Assembly: GCA_964485905.1 (NCBI GenBank)
Contig: CAZAJY010000001.1
Coordinates: 1 to 59,097, forward strand
Length of the DNA: 59,097 bases
Source of the DNA: an uncultured Candidatus Saccharibacteria bacterium
GTDB taxonomy: Bacteria > Patescibacteriota > Minisyncoccia > Phycocordibacterales > GWA1-40-21
Direction of reading: 5' to 3'
A program made the translations under genes and the position numbers. Below the pieces are notes generated by a model. The model saw only the letters and a list, made by a program, of their open reading frames with translations, did no database searches and was not told the origin of the DNA. Positions 4,501-33,737 of the stretch are shown one piece after another (position 1 is the first letter of the stretch; the number at the start of each line of letters is the position of its first letter).

Positions 4501-4550
4501 ACCCTCTCCTTTTCTAAGGAGAGGGTGGCATTCTGATGACGGGTGAGGTC
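4501..4550. repeat. GC-rich palindromic intergenic element, copy B (CTCTCC-ttttctaa-GGAGAG subtype)
   Basis: Contains ccctctccttttctaaggagaggg ... gggtgaggtc, nearly the same as the copy at 27319-27362. Confidence 0.7.
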
Positions 4551-6971: not shown

Positions 6972-7397
6972 TTATACTATTTCTCGGCTAACAACTTTAG
7001 TGTGAACCTGAATTTTTGTACCACCCTTTCTTAAAACTTCACGAGCAGCTTCTTCTGAAATACCATCAACTTCAAATAAAACACGACCGGGTCTAATTAC
7101 CGCCTGATAACCCTGTGGGTCACCCTTTCCCTTACCCATCTTCACTTCAGCTGGTTTTTGCGTATAAGGTCTATCTGGAAAGATTCTTGTCCACAGTTTT
7201 CCTGTTTTTCCTAGAGAGTGAGCTATTGTTTTTCTTGCGGCCTCAATTTCTGGTGAACGAATTCGTCCAGCAGAAATAGCTTTCAAACCAAAAGATCCAA
7301 AAGATACGAGGGTGCCCCTGGTTTCATTCCCTATTTTCTTAGGGTTTTCTCGGCCAGTCTGCCACTTTCTAAATTTTACTTTTTTGGGTAATAACAT
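6972..7397 (-). CDS. rplP: 50S ribosomal protein L16
   Basis: 141 aa starting MLLPKKVKFRK..., operon position. Confidence 0.93.
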   Translation of the reverse strand: MLLPKKVKFRKWQTGRENPKKIGNETRGTLVSFGSFGLKAISAGRIRSPEIEAARKTIAHSLGKTGKLWTRIFPDRPYTQKPAEVKMGKGKGDPQGYQAVIRPGRVLFEVDGISEEAAREVLRKGGTKIQVHTKVVSREIV

Positions 7398-23567: not shown

Positions 23568-23610
23568 CACAACCGCCCCTAACCCCTCCTTGACTAAGGA
23601 GGGGAAGAAA
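23568..23610. repeat. GC-rich palindromic intergenic element, copy C
   Basis: cacaaccgcccctaacccctccttgactaaggaggggaagaaa. It borders the low-coordinate edge of the DGR cassette. Confidence 0.7.
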
Positions 23611-23621
23611 CAAAATAAAAA

Positions 23622-23720
23622 ATGACCCCCCGATCCACCCCATTCGTTTGCACGAATGAAATGTATCGGAGGGTCAGAGGATCAAAGTTTCAAAGAATCA
23701 AGAGCAGAGATTCAGATAAA
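23622..23720 (-). repeat. 99-nt conserved 3' flank of VR1, including a terminator-like hairpin (23624-23675)
   Basis: Identical in 99 of 99 nt to 26337-26435. In the minus sense the hairpin is GACCCTCCGAT...CATTCG-tgcaaa-CGAATG...ATCGGGGGGTC followed by a T-rich run. Confidence 0.85.
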
Positions 23721-24341
23721 CTACAGTTGCGGAACGACGATCCGACGCCCGTACCCGGCACCCCAGACAAAGTCGTTGGACAAACGGCGCACGCGCACCT
23801 CGAGCCGGCCAACGTACCAGAACACATGGGCGACGAAAAACTCGTCGCCCTTCTTCAATAAGAAGAAGTTGGCACTACCATTCTGAATGAGCAGGTCAGG
23901 GCGATTCTCCACCACCCAGAGGACTTGCTCGTCAGTCAGGACCAACTTGTTCAGGTCCGCGCTGTAGGCGGTGAAGAAATCGTTGAATCTGCCGTTCTTG
24001 GCCAGTTCCAACGATTCCACCAGACAGGCGGGCTTAACTTTATCATTGGCTCCGATATTCCAGTTGCGGAAATCGGTGTCAAGGTAACCGGTGAAGAGGA
24101 TCTTCATCGAACTGATAGTCCTCTTGCCAGTCGTGGCCGGGATGGTGGCCAAAAGACCGAGGCGACGGAAGTAGCCGACAATCATCTTCGTGCGGTTTTT
24201 CACCGCTTCCACGAAGAGACTGATGGCCTCCACCGTATTTTGTATCACCCACTGACCATCCTCGGTCGTGAACGACGCAAAACCATCCTGATGCTCCACC
24301 AACCGTGCTGCTATTACCGGAATCTGTGGTTCAGTAGCCAT
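23721..24341 (-). CDS. DGR variable target protein 1 (small, no obvious signal peptide)
   Basis: The C-terminal 40 aa are encoded by VR1. It is a paralog of the 26436-27107 ORF. Start taken at MATEPQ (24341), preceded by GGAGAG; the ORF extends to 24401. Confidence 0.85.
   Translation of the reverse strand: MATEPQIPVIAARLVEHQDGFASFTTEDGQWVIQNTVEAISLFVEAVKNRTKMIVGYFRRLGLLATIPATTGKRTISSMKILFTGYLDTDFRNWNIGANDKVKPACLVESLELAKNGRFNDFFTAYSADLNKLVLTDEQVLWVVENRPDLLIQNGSANFFLLKKGDEFFVAHVFWYVGRLEVRVRRLSNDFVWGAGYGRRIVVPQL
23724..23842 (-). repeat. DGR variable repeat VR1
   Basis: 119 nt colinear with the TR. There are 16 differences, all where the TR sense strand has A (T on the plus strand), and 0 at the other 92 positions. 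Confidence 0.9.
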
Positions 24342-24399
24342 TTTGGCTCTCCTGTTTTTACAGATCTTCACCCACTGTCTCAAAACGTTATGTTTTGCC

Positions 24400-24439
24400 A
24401 CAGCTTTTAATATATTTTAATAAACACACTAAAAGCTGT
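24400..24439 (-). promoter_or_regulatory. conserved 5'-leader hairpin of target 1 (10-bp stem ACAGCTTTTA/TAAAAGCTGT, 20-nt AT loop)
   Basis: A homologous hairpin with a similar loop lies upstream of target 2 at 27204-27251. Confidence 0.55.
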
Positions 24440-24489
24440 AGCAAAACTTCTATTCCGCACTTATATCAAATATCTACTTTCTACCTCCT

Positions 24490-24518
24490 ATTATACACCT
24501 ACTGAACTTTTTTGTCAA
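24490..24518 (-). promoter_or_regulatory. consensus sigma70-type promoter for target 1 (TTGACA-17-TATAAT)
   Basis: The minus strand reads gcTTGACAaaaaagttcagtaggtgTATAATagg. Confidence 0.7.
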
Positions 24519-24568
24519 GCACAAAAAATGCACAAATTTTATTCTCAAATAAAGGCCTATTTATAAGA

Positions 24569-25564
24569 CTATTTTATAGTTTTCTGATTTAAGACTATAA
24601 TTTTAATTTTCTTTTGTAATTGCTTAGCGTTACCATGTTTTAATAAACCTAAATAGGAATTTACCACTTCTTTTTTCATATTAACCGCTAGATTTCTGAA
24701 CATCCTTCTCTTGGTGGCTGTTCTCAATACTCGATGATTAATAAAATGCACCCAACCTAAAAAATCCACGCCAGAAGCAAAAGTCTTAATGTATACTTTA
24801 TCGGGATGCAAATTTAATTTCAACTTTATCTGAAGAAAATTATCAACCAGTATTAGTAAGGATTCCAGATATTTCTTTTTATCACTTAATATCACGAAAT
24901 CATCAGCATATCTGACATAATATTTTACTTTAAGAATATGCTTCAGATATTGATCAAATTCATTTAAATAAATATTTACTAACAATTGTGAAGTTAAGTT
25001 ACCCAATGGTAATCCCTTCCCTTTTTGCGTACTATTAAAACTTTCCACCACTTTTTCTATCAGCCATAAAGTATCTGTATCTATATTGTGCCTTTTTATC
25101 ACTGTATATAAAATTTGATGATCAATAGAAGCAAAAAATTTCCGAATATCACACTTCAAGGCCCAGAGTGTTCGGCTGTGATTAAAAGAAGCTTTCCAAC
25201 CAAAATGTCTGAGACGATTCATGGCCCGATGTGTTCCTTTCATATTCCGACAAGAATAAGAATCCCCAATAAATCTGGTGTCAAAATACGAATATAAAAT
25301 CCTATAAATAGCACGGTGGAGTAGTCTGTCTCGAACTTTAGCTTTATGAATAATTCTCGGTTTAGGATCATTAATAGAAAATTGTTCATAATTTCCATGT
25401 TTATAAGTCTTATTTTTTAAATCTAAATAAAGATCATAAATATTTTTAGATAAAAAAATCAAAAAATTGCCGACGTCTTGCTTGTTTTTCTTATCACAAA
25501 TAAATTCCCGCCAGGCCAGGTGTAGATTTTCCAAAGATATGATATATTTATAATTATGATTCAT
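24569..25564 (-). CDS. DGR reverse transcriptase
   Basis: RT motifs including GLPLGNLTSQLLVNIYL (the DGR-typical xGNLTSQ) and YVRYADDF (YADD). No maturase, endonuclease or retron-like extras. Start taken at MNHNYKYIISLENL (25564); the ORF extends to 25615. Confidence 0.9.
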   Translation of the reverse strand: MNHNYKYIISLENLHLAWREFICDKKNKQDVGNFLIFLSKNIYDLYLDLKNKTYKHGNYEQFSINDPKPRIIHKAKVRDRLLHRAIYRILYSYFDTRFIGDSYSCRNMKGTHRAMNRLRHFGWKASFNHSRTLWALKCDIRKFFASIDHQILYTVIKRHNIDTDTLWLIEKVVESFNSTQKGKGLPLGNLTSQLLVNIYLNEFDQYLKHILKVKYYVRYADDFVILSDKKKYLESLLILVDNFLQIKLKLNLHPDKVYIKTFASGVDFLGWVHFINHRVLRTATKRRMFRNLAVNMKKEVVNSYLGLLKHGNAKQLQKKIKIIVLNQKTIK

Positions 25565-25957
25565 AAGCAAGATAAAGTTACATTTCAATATGAGACACCA
25601 AAAGTCCTTATCCAAGAAAAAGAACTATACCGCCTTTGGCTGACAATTCATAGGGATTTTCCAAAAGTGGAGAGATTAGGTATTGGCCAGAAAATAGAAC
25701 AATCCTTCTTGACTGTCTTAGAACTTACCTTCGCCTCGGTTTATTTAGTAGCTGAAAGTAAAATACTGATGTTAAATAAAACAATCGCTAAACTAGATAA
25801 TTTAAAATTTTTTATGCAACTAGCTTGGGAAAACCAACTGATACCAACAGAAAAATATTCAGAGATAGCTGGAAAACTTGAAGAAATCGGTCGTGGGCTT
25901 GGCGGTTGGAAAAAGGGTTTGCAAAAAAGTTTGGAACAAAAAACTCCCGCCAAATAG
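25556..25957 (+). CDS. avd: Avd-like accessory variability determinant (four-helix-bundle family)
   Basis: 133 aa. The helical pattern FPKVERLGIGQKIEQSFLTVLE...IAKLDNLKFFMQLAWENQLI...EEIGRGLGGW is typical of the 23S-IVS/Avd family. It lies next to the TR and RT but on the opposite strand. Confidence 0.75.
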   Translation: MIHKQDKVTFQYETPKVLIQEKELYRLWLTIHRDFPKVERLGIGQKIEQSFLTVLELTFASVYLVAESKILMLNKTIAKLDNLKFFMQLAWENQLIPTEKYSEIAGKLEEIGRGLGGWKKGLQKSLEQKTPAK

Positions 25958-25964
25958 ACGGGAG
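25938..25964 (-). terminator. terminator-like hairpin plus U6 immediately 3' of the TR (minus sense), overlapping the avd stop codon
   Basis: The minus strand reads CTCCCG-tctatttgg-CGGGAG followed by TTTTTT. Confidence 0.5.
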
Positions 25965-25972
25965 AAAATTTG

Positions 25973-26091
25973 CAGTTTCGGAACGACGATCCGATGCCCG
26001 TACCCGGCATCCCAGACATTGTCGTTGGACAAACGGTTCACGTTCACCTTGAGCCGGCCATCGTACCAGTTCACATTGGCGACGAAAATTT
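25973..26091 (-). repeat. DGR template repeat (TR)
   Basis: Noncoding copy of the VR with 27 adenines in the sense strand, several in AAC/AAT codons. Its conceptual translation is FVANVNWYDGRLKVNVNRLSNDNVWDAGYGHRIVVPKL. Confidence 0.9.
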
Positions 26092-26336
26092 GTGCTATCA
26101 ATCATCTAGCTCACCACCTGCCAAATCATGACAGATTGAATAGTATTTGAGACCTAAAAGTCTCTATAATTGATAGCACCAACTGTTAATATTTTTTGAA
26201 GGATATTTTTCTACACGCTTGCGTAAGGCGTACCCAACGCAATTCTGATATTAAATATCCTAAAATAATGACAGAAAAGCCTTGACCGTTCTGTAACACA
26301 TCATTCCAAAATTAGTATAGCAGATTTAAAATGAAA

Positions 26337-26435
26337 ATGACCCCCCGATCCACCCCATTCGTTTGCACGAATGAAATGTATCGGAGGGTCAGAGGATCAA
26401 AGTTTCAAAGAATCAAGAGCAGAGATTCAGATAAA
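26337..26435 (-). repeat. 99-nt conserved 3' flank of VR2, including a terminator-like hairpin
   Basis: Identical to 23622-23720. Confidence 0.85.
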
Positions 26436-27107
26436 CTACAGTTGCGGAACGACGAGCCGATGCCCGTACCCGGCATCCCAGACAGTGCCGTGGGACAAAC
26501 GGCGCACGTACACCAGGAGCCGGCCAGCGTACCAGTACACATCGGCGACGAAAAACTCGCCCTTACCTTGCAACTTCTCCTTGAACAGGAAGAAGGTGCC
26601 GTAGCCATCCGTTCGAAGCCACTTACTATGATCCTTCACGAAACGGATGATCTGGCTTTGCGTCAGGCACAAACTCTCCCGACTCCGGCCGAAGCCATCG
26701 TAGATCTGAGCAAAAGTCCCGTCCTTGACTAGCTCCAGAACCTCTACCCTCGTCTTCTTCGTCGGCTGACCCGGGATATTTATCCCGTAGTTCACGAAAT
26801 CACCGTCAATGTAGCCCGGGAAGATGTCCTTGGCTTCAGCAATCGTCGCCCGACCATTCGTCGCTCCGATGATCACCTTCTTGCCTTTGGACAACGATCG
26901 ACAGTAGCCCACTACCGGTTTCGGCTTGAGTACAAGCTCTCCTCGACCGAGAGTGAGCAAGGCCATATCGTTGGCCAACACTGGGTCACTCACGATCTTC
27001 GTGGCGTCAGAATCTGTTCCACCACTGTCCACAACCGCGTGAACATAGGCCTGCCCAATCTGAGCTAATGTCATTCCTTTTTCCGCCAACTCGCTTTTAC
27101 CACTCAT
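26436..27107 (-). CDS. DGR variable target protein 2 (paralog of target 1)
   Basis: 223 aa whose C-terminus is encoded by VR2. It shares VGY..., F.GY.D.DF.N and FFVA...WY.GRL motifs with target 1. A purine-rich RBS precedes the ATG. Confidence 0.85.
   Translation of the reverse strand: MSGKSELAEKGMTLAQIGQAYVHAVVDSGGTDSDATKIVSDPVLANDMALLTLGRGELVLKPKPVVGYCRSLSKGKKVIIGATNGRATIAEAKDIFPGYIDGDFVNYGINIPGQPTKKTRVEVLELVKDGTFAQIYDGFGRSRESLCLTQSQIIRFVKDHSKWLRTDGYGTFFLFKEKLQGKGEFFVADVYWYAGRLLVYVRRLSHGTVWDAGYGHRLVVPQL
26439..26557 (-). repeat. DGR variable repeat VR2
   Basis: 119 nt colinear with the TR. There are 15 differences, all at TR adenines, and 0 elsewhere. Confidence 0.9.
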
Positions 27108-27203
27108 CTCTTTCTTCTCCCTGTGGCCTGCCTAGTATAATACTTTGGCCTACCACCTTGCTTGTTGGCGATTATCGCCTTTTCGACTTCACCTATTTGG
27201 TTT

Positions 27204-27251
27204 AGTCACAGCTTTTAATAAATTAAATTAAACATACTAAAAGCTGTGACT
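27204..27251 (-). promoter_or_regulatory. conserved 5'-leader hairpin of target 2 (14-bp perfect stem, 20-nt AT loop)
   Basis: agtcacagctttta ... taaaagctgtgact. It is homologous to 24400-24439. Confidence 0.55.
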
Positions 27252-27288
27252 AATTCCGCATTTTTTAATGTCCTACTTTCTACCCCAT

Positions 27289-27317
27289 ATTATACACCCA
27301 AGCATTTTAAAAGTCAA
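27289..27317 (-). promoter_or_regulatory. near-consensus sigma70-type promoter for target 2 (TTGACT-17-TATAAT)
   Basis: The minus strand reads ccaTTGACTtttaaaatgcttgggtgTATAATatg. Confidence 0.7.
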
Positions 27318-27318
27318 T

Positions 27319-27362
27319 GGCAACCAATTTCCCCCTCGCCTTTTCTAAGGAGAGGGGTTGGG
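27319..27362. repeat. GC-rich palindromic element, copy D (overlaps the recJ 3' end)
   Basis: ttccccctcgccttttctaaggagaggggttgggggtgaggtcc. The recJ ORF reads through it (...DLTPNPSP*). Confidence 0.7.
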
Positions 27363-29127: not shown

Positions 29128-29171
29128 CACAACCTCACCTAGCCTCTCCTTGACTAAGGAGAGGAAGAGGG
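29128..29171. repeat. GC-rich palindromic element, copy E
   Basis: cacaacctcacctagcctctccttgactaaggagaggaagaggg, between recJ and the HIT gene. Confidence 0.7.
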
Positions 29172-33696: not shown

Positions 33697-33737
33697 TCTT
33701 CCCCTCCTTAGTTAAGGAGGGGCTAGGGGCGGTTGTG
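33697..33737. repeat. GC-rich palindromic element, copy F, between convergent genes
   Basis: cttcccctccttagttaaggaggggctaggggcggttgtg. Confidence 0.7.

Follow-up and report, generated by a model that had tools for sequence, protein, structure and literature searches.

One template repeat and two paralogous targets: a very probably intact diversity-generating retroelement on a CPR chromosome

Does the region at 23.6-27.3 kb of a 59,097-nt stretch of DNA from an uncultured Candidatus Saccharibacteria bacterium (the window, by which we mean that whole stretch) hold a complete diversity-generating retroelement (DGR), and does its one template repeat (TR) feed two variable repeats (VRs) in different genes? 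The initial annotation had proposed both, from a TR colinear with the 3' ends of two minus-strand coding sequences. Both VRs do end minus-strand ORFs, each stopping one codon short of the stop codon, and the repeats and genes concerned are as follows.

25973-26091, minus strand: TR, 119 nt (A27 C28 G36 T28, minus sense), with a conservative core at 25973-26088
23724-23842, minus strand: VR1, the last 39 codons of target 1 (16/27 TR-adenine sites changed, 0/92 others)
26439-26557, minus strand: VR2, the last 39 codons of target 2 (15/27 TR-adenine sites changed, 0/92 others)
23721-24341, minus strand: target gene 1, 206 aa, downstream of the reverse transcriptase (RT) gene (ORF list; ATG at 24341, stop TAG at 23721-23723)
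26436-27107, minus strand: target gene 2, 223 aa (212 aa in the NCBI call), in the canonical position upstream of the TR (ORF list)

We compared the TR, read on the minus strand, with both VRs gap-free and in register, and every figure given earlier was reproduced. VR1 differs from the TR at 16 positions (A>G 6, A>T 6, A>C 4) and VR2 at 15 (A>C 7, A>G 4, A>T 4); tallied by TR base, all of these differences fall at the 27 adenines and none at the other 92 positions in either VR (Fisher exact P = 4.8e-13 for VR1 and 4.2e-12 for VR2). With the 116-nt TR (25973-26088), 14/24 A sites are changed in VR1 and 13/24 in VR2, and non-A sites remain at 0/92. Extension by 2 nt past either TR end immediately brings in non-A mismatches, and thus the TR boundaries are correct to ~3 nt. 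The three-copy repeat family was recovered independently by a repeat search, and an invariant 12-mer of the family occurs exactly 3 times in the 59-kb window (vs 0.04 expected). Codon positions 1 or 2 hold 24 of the 25 in-frame TR adenines, and the 16 TR codons that contain A include four AAC and two AAT, as had been described for the mutable sites; the conceptual peptides of the TR, VR1 and VR2 likewise agree with those first given.

Between the repeats lie two further genes.

24569-25564, minus strand: DGR reverse transcriptase, 331 aa (RVT_1, E 1e-23)
25556-25957, plus strand: avd accessory gene, 133 aa (Pfam bAvd, 47.9 bits, cut-off 40)

One could read the repeats as ordinary diverging paralogous sequence beside a group II intron-type or retron-type RT, as might be suggested by the NCBIfam search, in which a group II RT/maturase model ranks top for this RT, although far below its cut-off (142.7 vs 300), and by the 'retron-type' or 'group II' annotation on several phage relatives. 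The phage records with RT relatives below 60% identity number 174 (34-38% in the 15 listed) and include Bordetella, Bacteroides, Faecalibacterium and crAss-like phages. Such a reading is contradicted by the placement of 31/31 differences at adenines (P ~1e-12 per VR), and also by the RT itself, which is intact and carries the LPLGNLTSQ and YADD motifs reported initially: LGNLTSQ conforms to the DGR RT signature [I/V/L]GxxxSQ, not to QGxxxSP. The arginine equivalent to bRT R74 is retained. Of the solved relatives, 8ub7_A scores highest by a wide margin (126.7 bits, E 1.4e-35); it is a 328-aa protein entered as 'Reverse transcriptase', which we take, from its sequence, to be Bordetella phage bRT (the entry itself does not say so). 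Group II intron RTs among the solved structures score at most 60 bits and retron RTs at most 31 bits. The Avd-like ORF noted at the outset matches Pfam bAvd above the gathering score, with 55.8 bits against NCBIfam DivGenRetAVD, under the trusted cut-off of 80; to this we add that avd is divergent from RT, the two start codons overlapping within ATGATTCAT (25556-25564), with avd on the plus strand and the rest of the cassette on the minus strand. The Rfam search detected neither a group II intron RNA nor any retron msr/msd family at E <= 1. Moreover, the same cassette with A-biased TR/VR pairs is conserved in ~60 of 80 fetched related CPR loci. We regard the non-DGR reading as effectively refuted already and give it almost no credence; at the level of sequence, the comparisons establish the adenine-specific TR/VR pattern and the gene identities, and every sequence-testable defining feature of a DGR is present, which supports its identity as such.

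The DGR identified in this way is chromosomal, with RecJ, RNase H and ComEC as neighbours, and its RT has >579 close relatives; the best 80 are ~60% identical (57-67%), and almost all of these records carry the name of a CPR group or belong to unnamed bacteria, while a few are named otherwise. In its order target-TR-(avd)-RT, the locus corresponds to architecture B3 (Wu et al. 2018, PMC5758913), which as TR-(avd)-RT covers 90% of CPR DGRs; it also matches DGR clade 2, which is restricted to Patescibacteria (Roux et al. 2021, PMC8144416). The opposite-strand position of avd is common to all related loci with enough flank. Host type, RT identity and small targets without recognisable transmembrane or Pfam domains are alike between this DGR and the CPR DGRs of B3 and clade 2, which differ only in that a second target here lies directly downstream of the RT on the same strand. 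Second targets are rare among the 80 fetched loci and placed differently from target 1: one locus (L033) has two targets upstream, two (L061, L078) have an inverted VR downstream, and in one (L077) the second target is far upstream; a same-strand target downstream of the RT was found in none of these other 80 loci. A second target in this position is uncommon, not new. Multi-target DGRs (Legionella, Treponema and the three-target examples in Wu et al. 2018) likewise have one TR and several VRs diversified at different adenines, but the targets here are 41% identical paralogs (over 182 aa, E 7e-40) that share a 226-bp VR-plus-flank module, identical except at A sites.

This module bears on whether both VRs are truly served by the TR. 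Between VR1 and VR2 there are 14 differences, each at a TR-A site, and the other 92 positions are identical, which supports the proposal that the two diversified independently. They are not fully independent lineages, however, because the 105 nt past both target stop codons are 100% identical, and this flank, untemplated by the TR, needs gene conversion or duplication; its identity, set against 41% for the proteins, shows that DNA was exchanged between the two target loci. Where both VRs have changed, the same base is found at 6/11 sites (vs ~3.7 expected by chance), and the outermost A-site differences at each end are among these six, which may be fixed TR/VR (boundary) differences or shared ancestry rather than the product of mutagenesis. 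One might go further and suppose that the TR serves one VR only, the other having come from a recent duplication or gene conversion of the whole module, as the flank and the placement of target 1, unseen in the other loci, would allow. Conversion would leave the VRs identical, though, and since they now differ at 14 TR adenines, at least one VR was rewritten after conversion; each VR also departs from the TR at adenines only, and both have identical recipient signals, with no distinction between them as substrates. We therefore judge service of a single VR to be unlikely.

These recipient signals, shared by the two VRs that we think the TR serves, are:

23665-23720, minus strand: ~seven tandem 7-9-nt 'CT(n)TGA' repeats right after the target 1 stop (read from sequence)
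26380-26435, minus strand: identical copy of these repeats after target 2 (read from sequence)
23623-23676, minus strand: 24-bp hairpin 3' of VR1, with one mismatch and loop GCAA, then a T-run at 23612-23622
26338-26391, minus strand: identical 24-bp hairpin copy after VR2

An 8-nt periodicity after VRs is found clade-wide (lag-8 autocorrelation 0.397 vs 0.263 in controls), and the density of CT[TC]N?G is 4.7 per 80 nt behind VRs vs 0.94 behind TRs (paired Wilcoxon P 2.7e-11); TRF made no call on the post-VR repeats. The 8-nt CTTnG repeats are VR-specific and absent after the TR across the clade. The VR1-proximal hairpin, folded as DNA, reaches -23.6 kcal/mol (z = -6.5), and because its four G-T wobbles share one orientation, full pairing of the stem requires the sense strand or RNA.

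The TR itself is flanked by different elements, all on the minus strand, which suggest that it forms the 3' part of a putative ~370-nt RNA with an extended -10 box of its own, a 5' domain of ~215 nt, and a hairpin with U-tract.

26314-26322, minus strand: extended -10-like box TGCTATACT, putative TR-RNA promoter (read from sequence)
26092-26307, minus strand: structured 5' domain of the TR RNA (RNAalifold, 35 loci)
26272-26293, minus strand: helix P1
26208-26212 with 26251-26255, minus strand: helix P2
26219-26242, minus strand: helix P3
26092-26103 with 26168-26179, minus strand: helix P4, whose 3' strand ends at the base preceding the TR
26150-26163, minus strand: helix P5
~26116-26136, minus strand: helix P6
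25936-25964, minus strand: 8-bp GC-rich hairpin (25944-25964) and T6 tract, 8 nt past the TR (terminator scan)

A two-hexamer promoter scan did not call the TR-RNA promoter; in most related loci, a search by script located boxes of the TGnTAnnnT type 224-260 nt ahead of the TR. The 5' domain has 41 consensus pairs, with compensatory changes in 36/41; 95.5% of cells are paired, vs 39-50% with slid partners, and the covariation score is 0.916 vs 0.14-0.21, the observed values being reached by 0/500 shuffles. In the window sequence 38/41 pairs form. Covariation thus demonstrates a conserved RNA structure for the 5' domain. We also observed that the whole layout (extended -10 box, 5' domain, hairpin with U-tract) recurs across the clade.

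An Rfam search of the 5' domain returned no family at threshold, the sole similarity being to RT-9 (RF03080; Weinberg et al. 2017, PMC5737381), which matches over its full model at 26181-26296 on the minus strand. Like the domain here, RT-9 adjoins an RT gene, and its hairpin loop consensus GguUAcGgcUu matches the conserved P1 and P3 loops; however, the score is 27.4 bits vs a gathering score of 46.1, and the model covers the 5' half only, without P4-P6 or the TR. No match to RT-9 was obtained in eight related loci at E <= 1 or in eleven at the gathering score.

The hairpin and T6 tract after the TR overlap the avd stop codon, are terminator-like and, by analogy, may form an Avd-binding stem-loop. 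A hairpin with T-run follows the TR in 55/63 related loci (51 distinct stem sequences) vs 3.8% of random windows. The element fits published Avd-binding stem-loops, and 207/278 DGRs are reported to have a stem-loop close behind the TR.

What is diversified are two small, apparently cytoplasmic proteins. Neither has a recognisable transmembrane or Pfam domain: target 1 matched no Pfam or NCBIfam family above cut-off, and no Pfam domain was found in the target 2 family (391 word-index homologs, 2571 cluster representatives). The exact 206-aa target 1 product is already in public collections. In an AF2 model of target 2 (pLDDT 86.9), the variable residues lie in strands 182-193 and 196-203 and in loop 206-208; the modelled fold is weakly C-type-lectin-like, with membership in the C-type lectin fold not established. 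GC3 is 0.65-0.69 in the target genes vs ~0.3 in RT, avd and host genes, a clade-wide trend. The upstream regions of the two targets align with each other and contain:

24490-24518, minus strand: sigma-70 consensus promoter of target 1, TTGACA-17-TATAAT (promoter scan 12/12)
27289-27317, minus strand: sigma-70 promoter of target 2, TTGACT-17-TATAAT (promoter scan 11/12)
24392-24447, minus strand: palindrome CACAGCTTTTA-N20-TAAAAGCTGTG in the target 1 5' leader (repeat search, alignment)
27202-27253, minus strand: its target 2 counterpart (repeat search, alignment)

One other locus (L015) has a related palindrome ahead of its target.

The element shares with the prototype BPP-1 DGR (mtd-avd-TR-brt) the adenine-specific TR-to-VR differences, Avd, an RT with [I/V/L]GxxxSQ, YxDD and the R74 equivalent, a VR that closes the target ORF and is followed by a hairpin, and a stem-loop just past the TR. 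In contrast to BPP-1, which is phage-borne, it is chromosomal, and avd is inverted, such that what precedes the TR in the RNA is not the avd 3' end but a structured non-coding domain dedicated to it. Furthermore, the post-TR hairpin here has a U-tract; the gap from TR to next gene is ~45 nt vs ~140 nt in BPP-1; the VR hairpin is 24 bp, has G-T wobbles, lies ~45 nt past the stop and is preceded by the 8-nt repeats; and the target is no phage tail protein, its C-type lectin fold being unproven.

We considered that the DGR might be a relic, in which both VRs were diversified in the past and the A-site pattern is a fossil of a now inactive system. Over 12.7 kb, the one other assembly available for this genome is 100% identical, which fits a relic. 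Decay and orphaning do occur in this lineage, because a close relative (L085) has a T2-like gene between RecJ and RNase H on a 7.1-kb contig without RT, avd or TR, and the VR of another T2-like gene (L082) no longer fits its local TR. Here, however, neither the RT nor the avd ORF is broken, catalytic and signature motifs are in place, and the cis elements (promoter box, 38/41 RNA pairs, hairpins) are all intact; moreover, a fossil would gather non-A substitutions, and there are zero in 2 x 92 positions. Inactivity thus seems improbable to us.

We conclude that the region is very probably an intact chromosomal CPR (Patescibacteria) DGR of architecture B3, serving two paralogous targets, and that it is an ordinary member of a class already known as common in CPR bacteria. 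By analogy with the Bordetella phage DGR, from which we infer RNP assembly, cis-priming and cDNA integration as well as the roles of P4, hairpins and repeats, the ~370-nt non-coding RNA would be transcribed on the minus strand from near 26320 and bound by RT and Avd. Its 3' hairpin would probably be both Avd-binding stem-loop and terminator, and in the latter role, we propose, would prevent most TR transcripts from extending antisense into avd. The RT would copy the TR to cDNA, misincorporating opposite the 27 adenines, and the point at which cDNA synthesis ends may be set by the 12-bp P4 duplex, which adjoins the first TR base. The cDNA would then replace the homologous VR of either target; both carry the same recipient-only signals. 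In this organism, up to 16 codons would thereby be rewritten in the final three beta-strands of a C-terminal domain of ~160 aa, with a peptide diversity of ~2e14 possible per target.

We compared the template repeat (TR) with each of the two variable repeats (VR1 and VR2) of the locus, whose features are listed here.

Features of the DGR locus (window coordinates)
23623-23676, minus strand, 24-bp hairpin downstream of target 1 (T-run follows)
23665-23720, minus strand, repeat units after the stop codon of target 1
23721-24341, minus strand, target 1 (206 aa)
23724-23842, minus strand, VR1
24392-24447, leader palindrome of target 1
24490-24518, promoter of target 1
25564-24569, minus strand, RT ORF (331 aa)
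25556-25957, plus strand, avd ORF (133 aa)
25964-25944, minus strand, 8-bp hairpin 3' of the TR
26091-25973, minus strand, TR
26092-26322, minus strand, region of the structured RNA domain 5' of the TR
26322-26314, minus strand, extended -10-like box
26338-26391, minus strand, 24-bp hairpin downstream of target 2 (T-run follows)
26380-26435, minus strand, repeat units after the stop codon of target 2
26436-27107, minus strand, target 2 (223 aa)
26439-26557, minus strand, VR2
27202-27253, leader palindrome of target 2
27289-27317, promoter of target 2

In gap-free comparisons tallied by TR base, the TR and VR1 differed at 16 positions, the TR and VR2 differed at 15, and every difference fell on one of the 27 adenines of the TR (27 A, 28 C, 36 G and 28 T on the minus strand), and none of the 92 other positions was changed in either VR (16/27 and 15/27 adenines vs 0/92 other bases; Fisher exact P = 4.8e-13 for VR1 and 4.2e-12 for VR2). 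These counts reproduce exactly those of the initial annotation, including its finding of no change at the 92 remaining positions, and translation of TR, VR1 and VR2 gave the same conceptual peptides. The three copies form a direct repeat (23714-23839, 25963-26088 and 26429-26554) in register with the coordinates first assigned. The adenine-only pattern was unchanged when the TR was cut to 116 nt, and non-A mismatches appeared immediately when each end was lengthened by 2 nt. Within the window, a 12-mer that is invariant in the repeat has three occurrences (0.04 expected); thus, there is no third VR in these 59 kb. Both VRs make up the final 39 codons of minus-strand ORFs, and 24 of 25 in-frame TR adenines occupy codon positions 1 or 2. 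Several mutable sites had been said to lie in AAC/AAT codons, and indeed the 16 adenine-containing TR codons, from which ~1.9e14 peptides are possible, include four AAC and two AAT.

The proteins encoded between the two targets also fit a DGR. The RT, described earlier as having DGR-typical motifs, matches RVT_1 (E = 1e-23) and carries both LGNLTSQ and YADD. Among solved structures, 8ub7_A (328 aa, entered as 'Reverse transcriptase') is its best relative by a wide margin (126.7 bits, E = 1.4e-35); group II intron RTs score at most 60 bits and retron RTs at most 31 bits, and these scores serve as a proxy for its placement among RT types. The aligned sequence, with GIPIGSLTSQ and YMDD, leads us to take 8ub7_A for the Bordetella phage bRT, a name that its entry does not give. 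In this alignment, the window RT has L at the position of bRT I181 and retains an arginine equivalent to R74; in bRT, adenine mutagenesis is favored by both of these residues (PMC7826257). The DGR signature [I/V/L]GxxxSQ, which replaces the QGxxxSP of group II and retroviral RTs (PMC7826257), accommodates LGNLTSQ. The RT matched no trusted NCBIfam model, the top one being a group II model (142.7 bits; cut-off 300). Relatives of the RT at <60% identity were found in 174 phage records (34-38% among the 15 listed), including Bordetella, Bacteroides, Faecalibacterium and crAss-like phages, which are groups rich in DGRs.

The ORF noted initially as Avd-like matches Pfam PF22296 (bAvd) above its gathering score (47.9 bits; cut-off 40); its match to NCBIfam NF033474 is under the cut-off (55.8 bits; cut-off 80), and a sequence search gave no solved relative of Avd. 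The avd gene is divergent from the RT gene, and the two start codons overlap within the 9-nt ATGATTCAT (25556-25564), so that either each promoter lies inside the coding sequence of the other gene or the RT is expressed by read-through of the TR RNA. With adenine-only TR/VR differences, an RT bearing the DGR signature, Avd, and VRs at the 3' ends of the targets, the DGR interpretation stands.

We scanned one genome per GTDB species for RT relatives and found at least 579, the best 80 of which are 57-67% identical to the window RT and come nearly all from records of CPR/Patescibacteria groups or unnamed bacteria, with a few MAGs named Bdellovibrionales or Gammaproteobacteria. Related loci were scanned for DGRs by keeping self-BLAST pairs in which at least 80% of mismatches fell at A of one copy. 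A TR/VR pair was found in ~60 of the 80 loci, in the order target(VR), ~350 nt, TR, (avd), RT, and the TR-(avd)-RT order is common to all related loci with enough flank. The window has the same order and matches the B3 architecture of CPR DGRs, a TR-(avd)-RT core in which avd lies on the opposite strand (Wu et al. 2018, PMC5758913). It likewise fits DGR clade 2, which is restricted to Patescibacteria and has targets mostly without recognizable domains (Roux et al. 2021, PMC8144416). The neighbors of the DGR are housekeeping genes (RecJ, RNase H, ComEC, an MBL-fold protein, HIT and TIM), which indicates that it is chromosomal. Few of the 80 loci have a second target, and in none of them does it lie just downstream of the RT on the RT strand. 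DGRs with several targets are well known. Thus, the locus is a textbook case of a CPR DGR, apart from its extra target, and its class is already known.

Two further close relatives share the RecJ/RNase H/ComEC neighborhood and differ in layout. In L085, the order is RecJ-target-RNase H-ComEC, with a gene resembling target 2 and no DGR core on that contig; in L082, it is target-RNase H-X-target-TR-(avd)-RT-ComEC, with the core between RNase H and ComEC, and the VR of its gene resembling target 2 no longer fits the local TR. In the related locus L015, a LOOT RNA (RF03000, 81.1 bits; 7063-7180) lies directly downstream of the DGR RT. The window itself carries five dispersed copies (0 expected) of a 22-nt palindrome, CCYCTCCTTnnCTAAGGAGRGG, at 4503-4524, 23583-23604, 27334-27355, 29143-29164 and 33701-33722; two copies bracket the DGR island, and the palindrome resembles REP elements or a terminator that acts in both directions.

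The two VRs differ from each other at 14 positions, every one a TR adenine, and are identical at the 92 non-A positions; moreover, the 105 nt past the target stop codons (23619-23723 vs 26334-26438) are 100% identical. Since the 14 differences are confined to 27 of 224 positions, unlike ordinary divergence, one or both VRs must have been rewritten after the point at which their sequences last matched. The flanks are not templated by the TR, and their identity, despite only 41% identity between the paralogous target proteins, implies gene conversion or duplication of a 226-bp module of VR plus flank. Recombination between these two direct repeats would yield the layout seen in L085. Eleven adenines are changed in both VRs, to the same base at 6 (~3.7 expected), including the outermost site of each end. 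At the outermost 3' site, CGAAAC in the TR corresponds to CGCAAC in the VRs; the same change is present in L001 and L015, and it looks like a fixed IMH*/IMH difference. We also compared protein clusters and a second assembly for population variants, a search that was uninformative because the sole other assembly of this genome is identical in sequence.

The putative recipient signals are the same at VR1 and VR2. Past an invariant GC-rich segment (TCGTCGTTCCG), both VRs read CAACTG and the TR reads AAACTG, as would be the case for a putative IMH and IMH*, respectively. After each target stop codon, there are about seven repeat units of 7-9 nt (in order, TTTATCTGA, ATCTCTG, CTCTTGA, TTCTTTGA, AACTTTGA, TCCTCTGA and CCCTCCGA), which run into a 24-bp hairpin (z = -6.5) and then a T-run. 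The hairpin and the CTTnG repeats follow both VRs and are absent after the TR. Four G-T wobbles in the 24-bp stem all have one orientation, so that the sense strand or the mRNA alone can form the complete stem; the hairpin fits either an mRNA terminator or a strand-specific form of the DGR 'cruciform'.

The repeats are a general property of the related loci. Since they were too degenerate for TRF to call, we used autocorrelation and motif counts instead. In 65 VR flanks of related loci, autocorrelation was 0.397 (lag 8) and 0.354 (lag 16), compared to 0.26 in controls. Per 80 nt, CT[TC]N?G occurred 4.7 times after VRs, 0.94 times after TRs and 1.0 times in random windows (paired P = 2.7e-11). 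This makes the 8-nt array recipient-specific, as the IMH is.

The TR, in turn, is set between RNA structures of its own. Eight nt past its 3' end is an 8-bp GC-rich hairpin followed by TTTTTT. A per-sequence hairpin search, with random windows as the control, found a perfect hairpin with a T-run within ~45 nt of the TR end in 55 of 63 related loci, compared to 3.8% of random 80-nt windows. The stems comprise 51 different sequences; stems that differ in sequence misalign, and for this reason MAFFT with RNAalifold yielded no more than 4 pairs for the TR 3' flank. Putative Avd-binding stem-loops have been described just 3' of the TR in 207 of 278 DGRs, CPR included (Handa et al., bioRxiv 10.1101/2023.10.23.563531), so that this hairpin is known in kind. 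The U-tract points to a second role, termination of the TR RNA ahead of antisense entry into avd. We considered that TR transcription might necessarily run antisense through avd into the RT gene, but the conserved hairpin and U-tract make this less likely, with read-through a possibility.

On the 5' side, the ~350-nt gap upstream of the TR is conserved in related loci, and the extended -10-like box TGCTATACT has similar counterparts in most of them. A conserved, structured domain of ~215 nt with six helices (P1-P6) follows this box and lies directly 5' of the TR, and has an equivalent place in the 80 related loci. RNAalifold on 35 loci gave 41 pairs, 36 of which show compensatory changes. In this alignment, 95.5% of cells were paired, compared to 39-50% when partners were slid by 1-3 columns, and the covariation score was 0.916, compared to 0.14-0.21 slid (none of 500 shuffles reached the observed values). 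The window sequence forms 38 of the 41 pairs, and the 3' strand of the 12-bp helix P4 ends at 26092, one base short of the TR. The sole Rfam similarity was to RT-9 (RF03080; E 0.012 to 0.2), with which the domain shares the P1/P3 loop motif. Its score of 27.4 bits does not reach the gathering threshold of 46.1, and among 19 related loci, none of which had any Rfam match there, 8 had no RT-9 match at E ≤ 1 and 11 had none at the gathering score; we therefore did not accept the domain as a member of this family. The survey of Handa et al. (bioRxiv 10.1101/2023.10.23.563531) covered just 40 nt upstream of the TR. We found no description of the 5' RNA domain or of the VR repeat array in the searchable literature outside the key CPR paper of Paul et al. 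2017.

Each target has its own near-consensus sigma-70 promoter, followed by a conserved leader palindrome (CACAGCTTTTA-N20-TAAAAGCTGTG) that may be an operator or a leader hairpin; L015 has GCCACAGCAGA-N22-TCTGCTGTGGC in the same place. Rfam matches of this palindrome to microRNAs were spurious.

Neither target matched a family in Pfam or NCBIfam scans, and 10 longer proteins of the target family had no Pfam match above cut-off. The family is very large (391 word-index homologs; 2571 representatives of 50% clusters at E ≤ 1e-3) and has no Pfam domain. In some of these proteins, among them P0126 (560 aa) and P0127 (476 aa), the ~160-aa C-terminal domain occurs as two or three copies in tandem. 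Inspection of the target N-termini revealed no signal peptide and no hydrophobic segment; on this basis, the targets look cytoplasmic.

We examined the fold in AF2 models of the full length (pLDDT 86.9) and of the domain (pLDDT 87.5), both of them confident. The predicted domain topology, a beta strand, three short helices and four strands, is compatible with a C-type lectin (CLec). In the model, variable residues alternate on two strands (182-193 and 196-203) and also fill the loop at 206-208, and this alternating placement would put the variable residues of the strands on one face of the sheet. Foldseek found no PDB match at E < 0.1 for either the full-length or the domain model and, for the full-length model, none of significance in BFVD, and the target-family profile matched no PDB sequence below E 0.1. 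The top matches of the full-length model, to NTF2-like and de novo curved-sheet proteins, had probabilities of at most 0.28, and we did not accept either as the fold. For the domain model, the highest TM-scores were weak (0.37-0.40) and extended over 117-137 columns, nearly the full length, and all of these matches were CLec-like (6e7d, 1v7p_B, 3gpr_B and 8qmd_A). For the modeled domain, we lean, no more than tentatively, toward a very divergent CLec fold.

The targets also stand apart in composition. Outside the VRs (23843-24341 and 26558-27107), they have a GC content of 0.53 and GC3 of 0.65-0.69, compared to GC3 of 0.27-0.35 for the RT, avd and five neighboring genes. We considered that high GC might be a by-product of adenine depletion, as DGR mutagenesis could cause. 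However, the excess falls outside the VR, in the third positions of codons, and there adenine shows no depletion (0.24-0.25); the composition is therefore not explained by DGR mutagenesis. In related loci, the ~220-aa targets mostly have a GC content of 0.50-0.60 regardless of flank GC, and the RTs average 0.04 below their flanks, although imperfect frame calls make both a broad trend only. One possible explanation is that target modules are exchanged horizontally, which the variable synteny of L085 and L082 fits.

Jointly, these observations can be read as B3-type CPR DGRs that use undescribed cis elements (the 5' RNA domain and the CTTnG array), a target domain that is either a new scaffold or an extremely divergent CLec, and a mobile target module, a reading that we regard as tentative and, taken as a whole, rather doubtful. 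The 5' domain, fused to the TR with its P4 duplex next to the first templated base, would replace the avd-derived upstream RNA of the Bordetella element in RNP assembly and in stopping cDNA synthesis. The CTTnG array could be the true landing pad, an equivalent of the IMH, with one TR serving several targets. The GC3-rich targets would reflect a 'target module' that moves horizontally, independent of the RT-avd core.

Since DGRs are abundant in CPR bacteria, one more example has little news value alone, and specialist interest might be limited to the clade-wide cis elements and the composition anomaly. The locus is a clean and complete reference, with intact RT, Avd, TR and two targets whose VRs differ, and with zero non-adenine noise, and it is suited to studying how the compact CPR cassette works. 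Comparison across loci suggests that the TR lies within a discrete, highly structured small RNA, that recipient sites carry a periodic array, and that the composition of the targets is foreign to both the RT and the host. If confirmed, these features would provide testable handles on how the cDNA finds and replaces its target and on what the cytoplasmic, domain-less targets of CPR bacteria bind.
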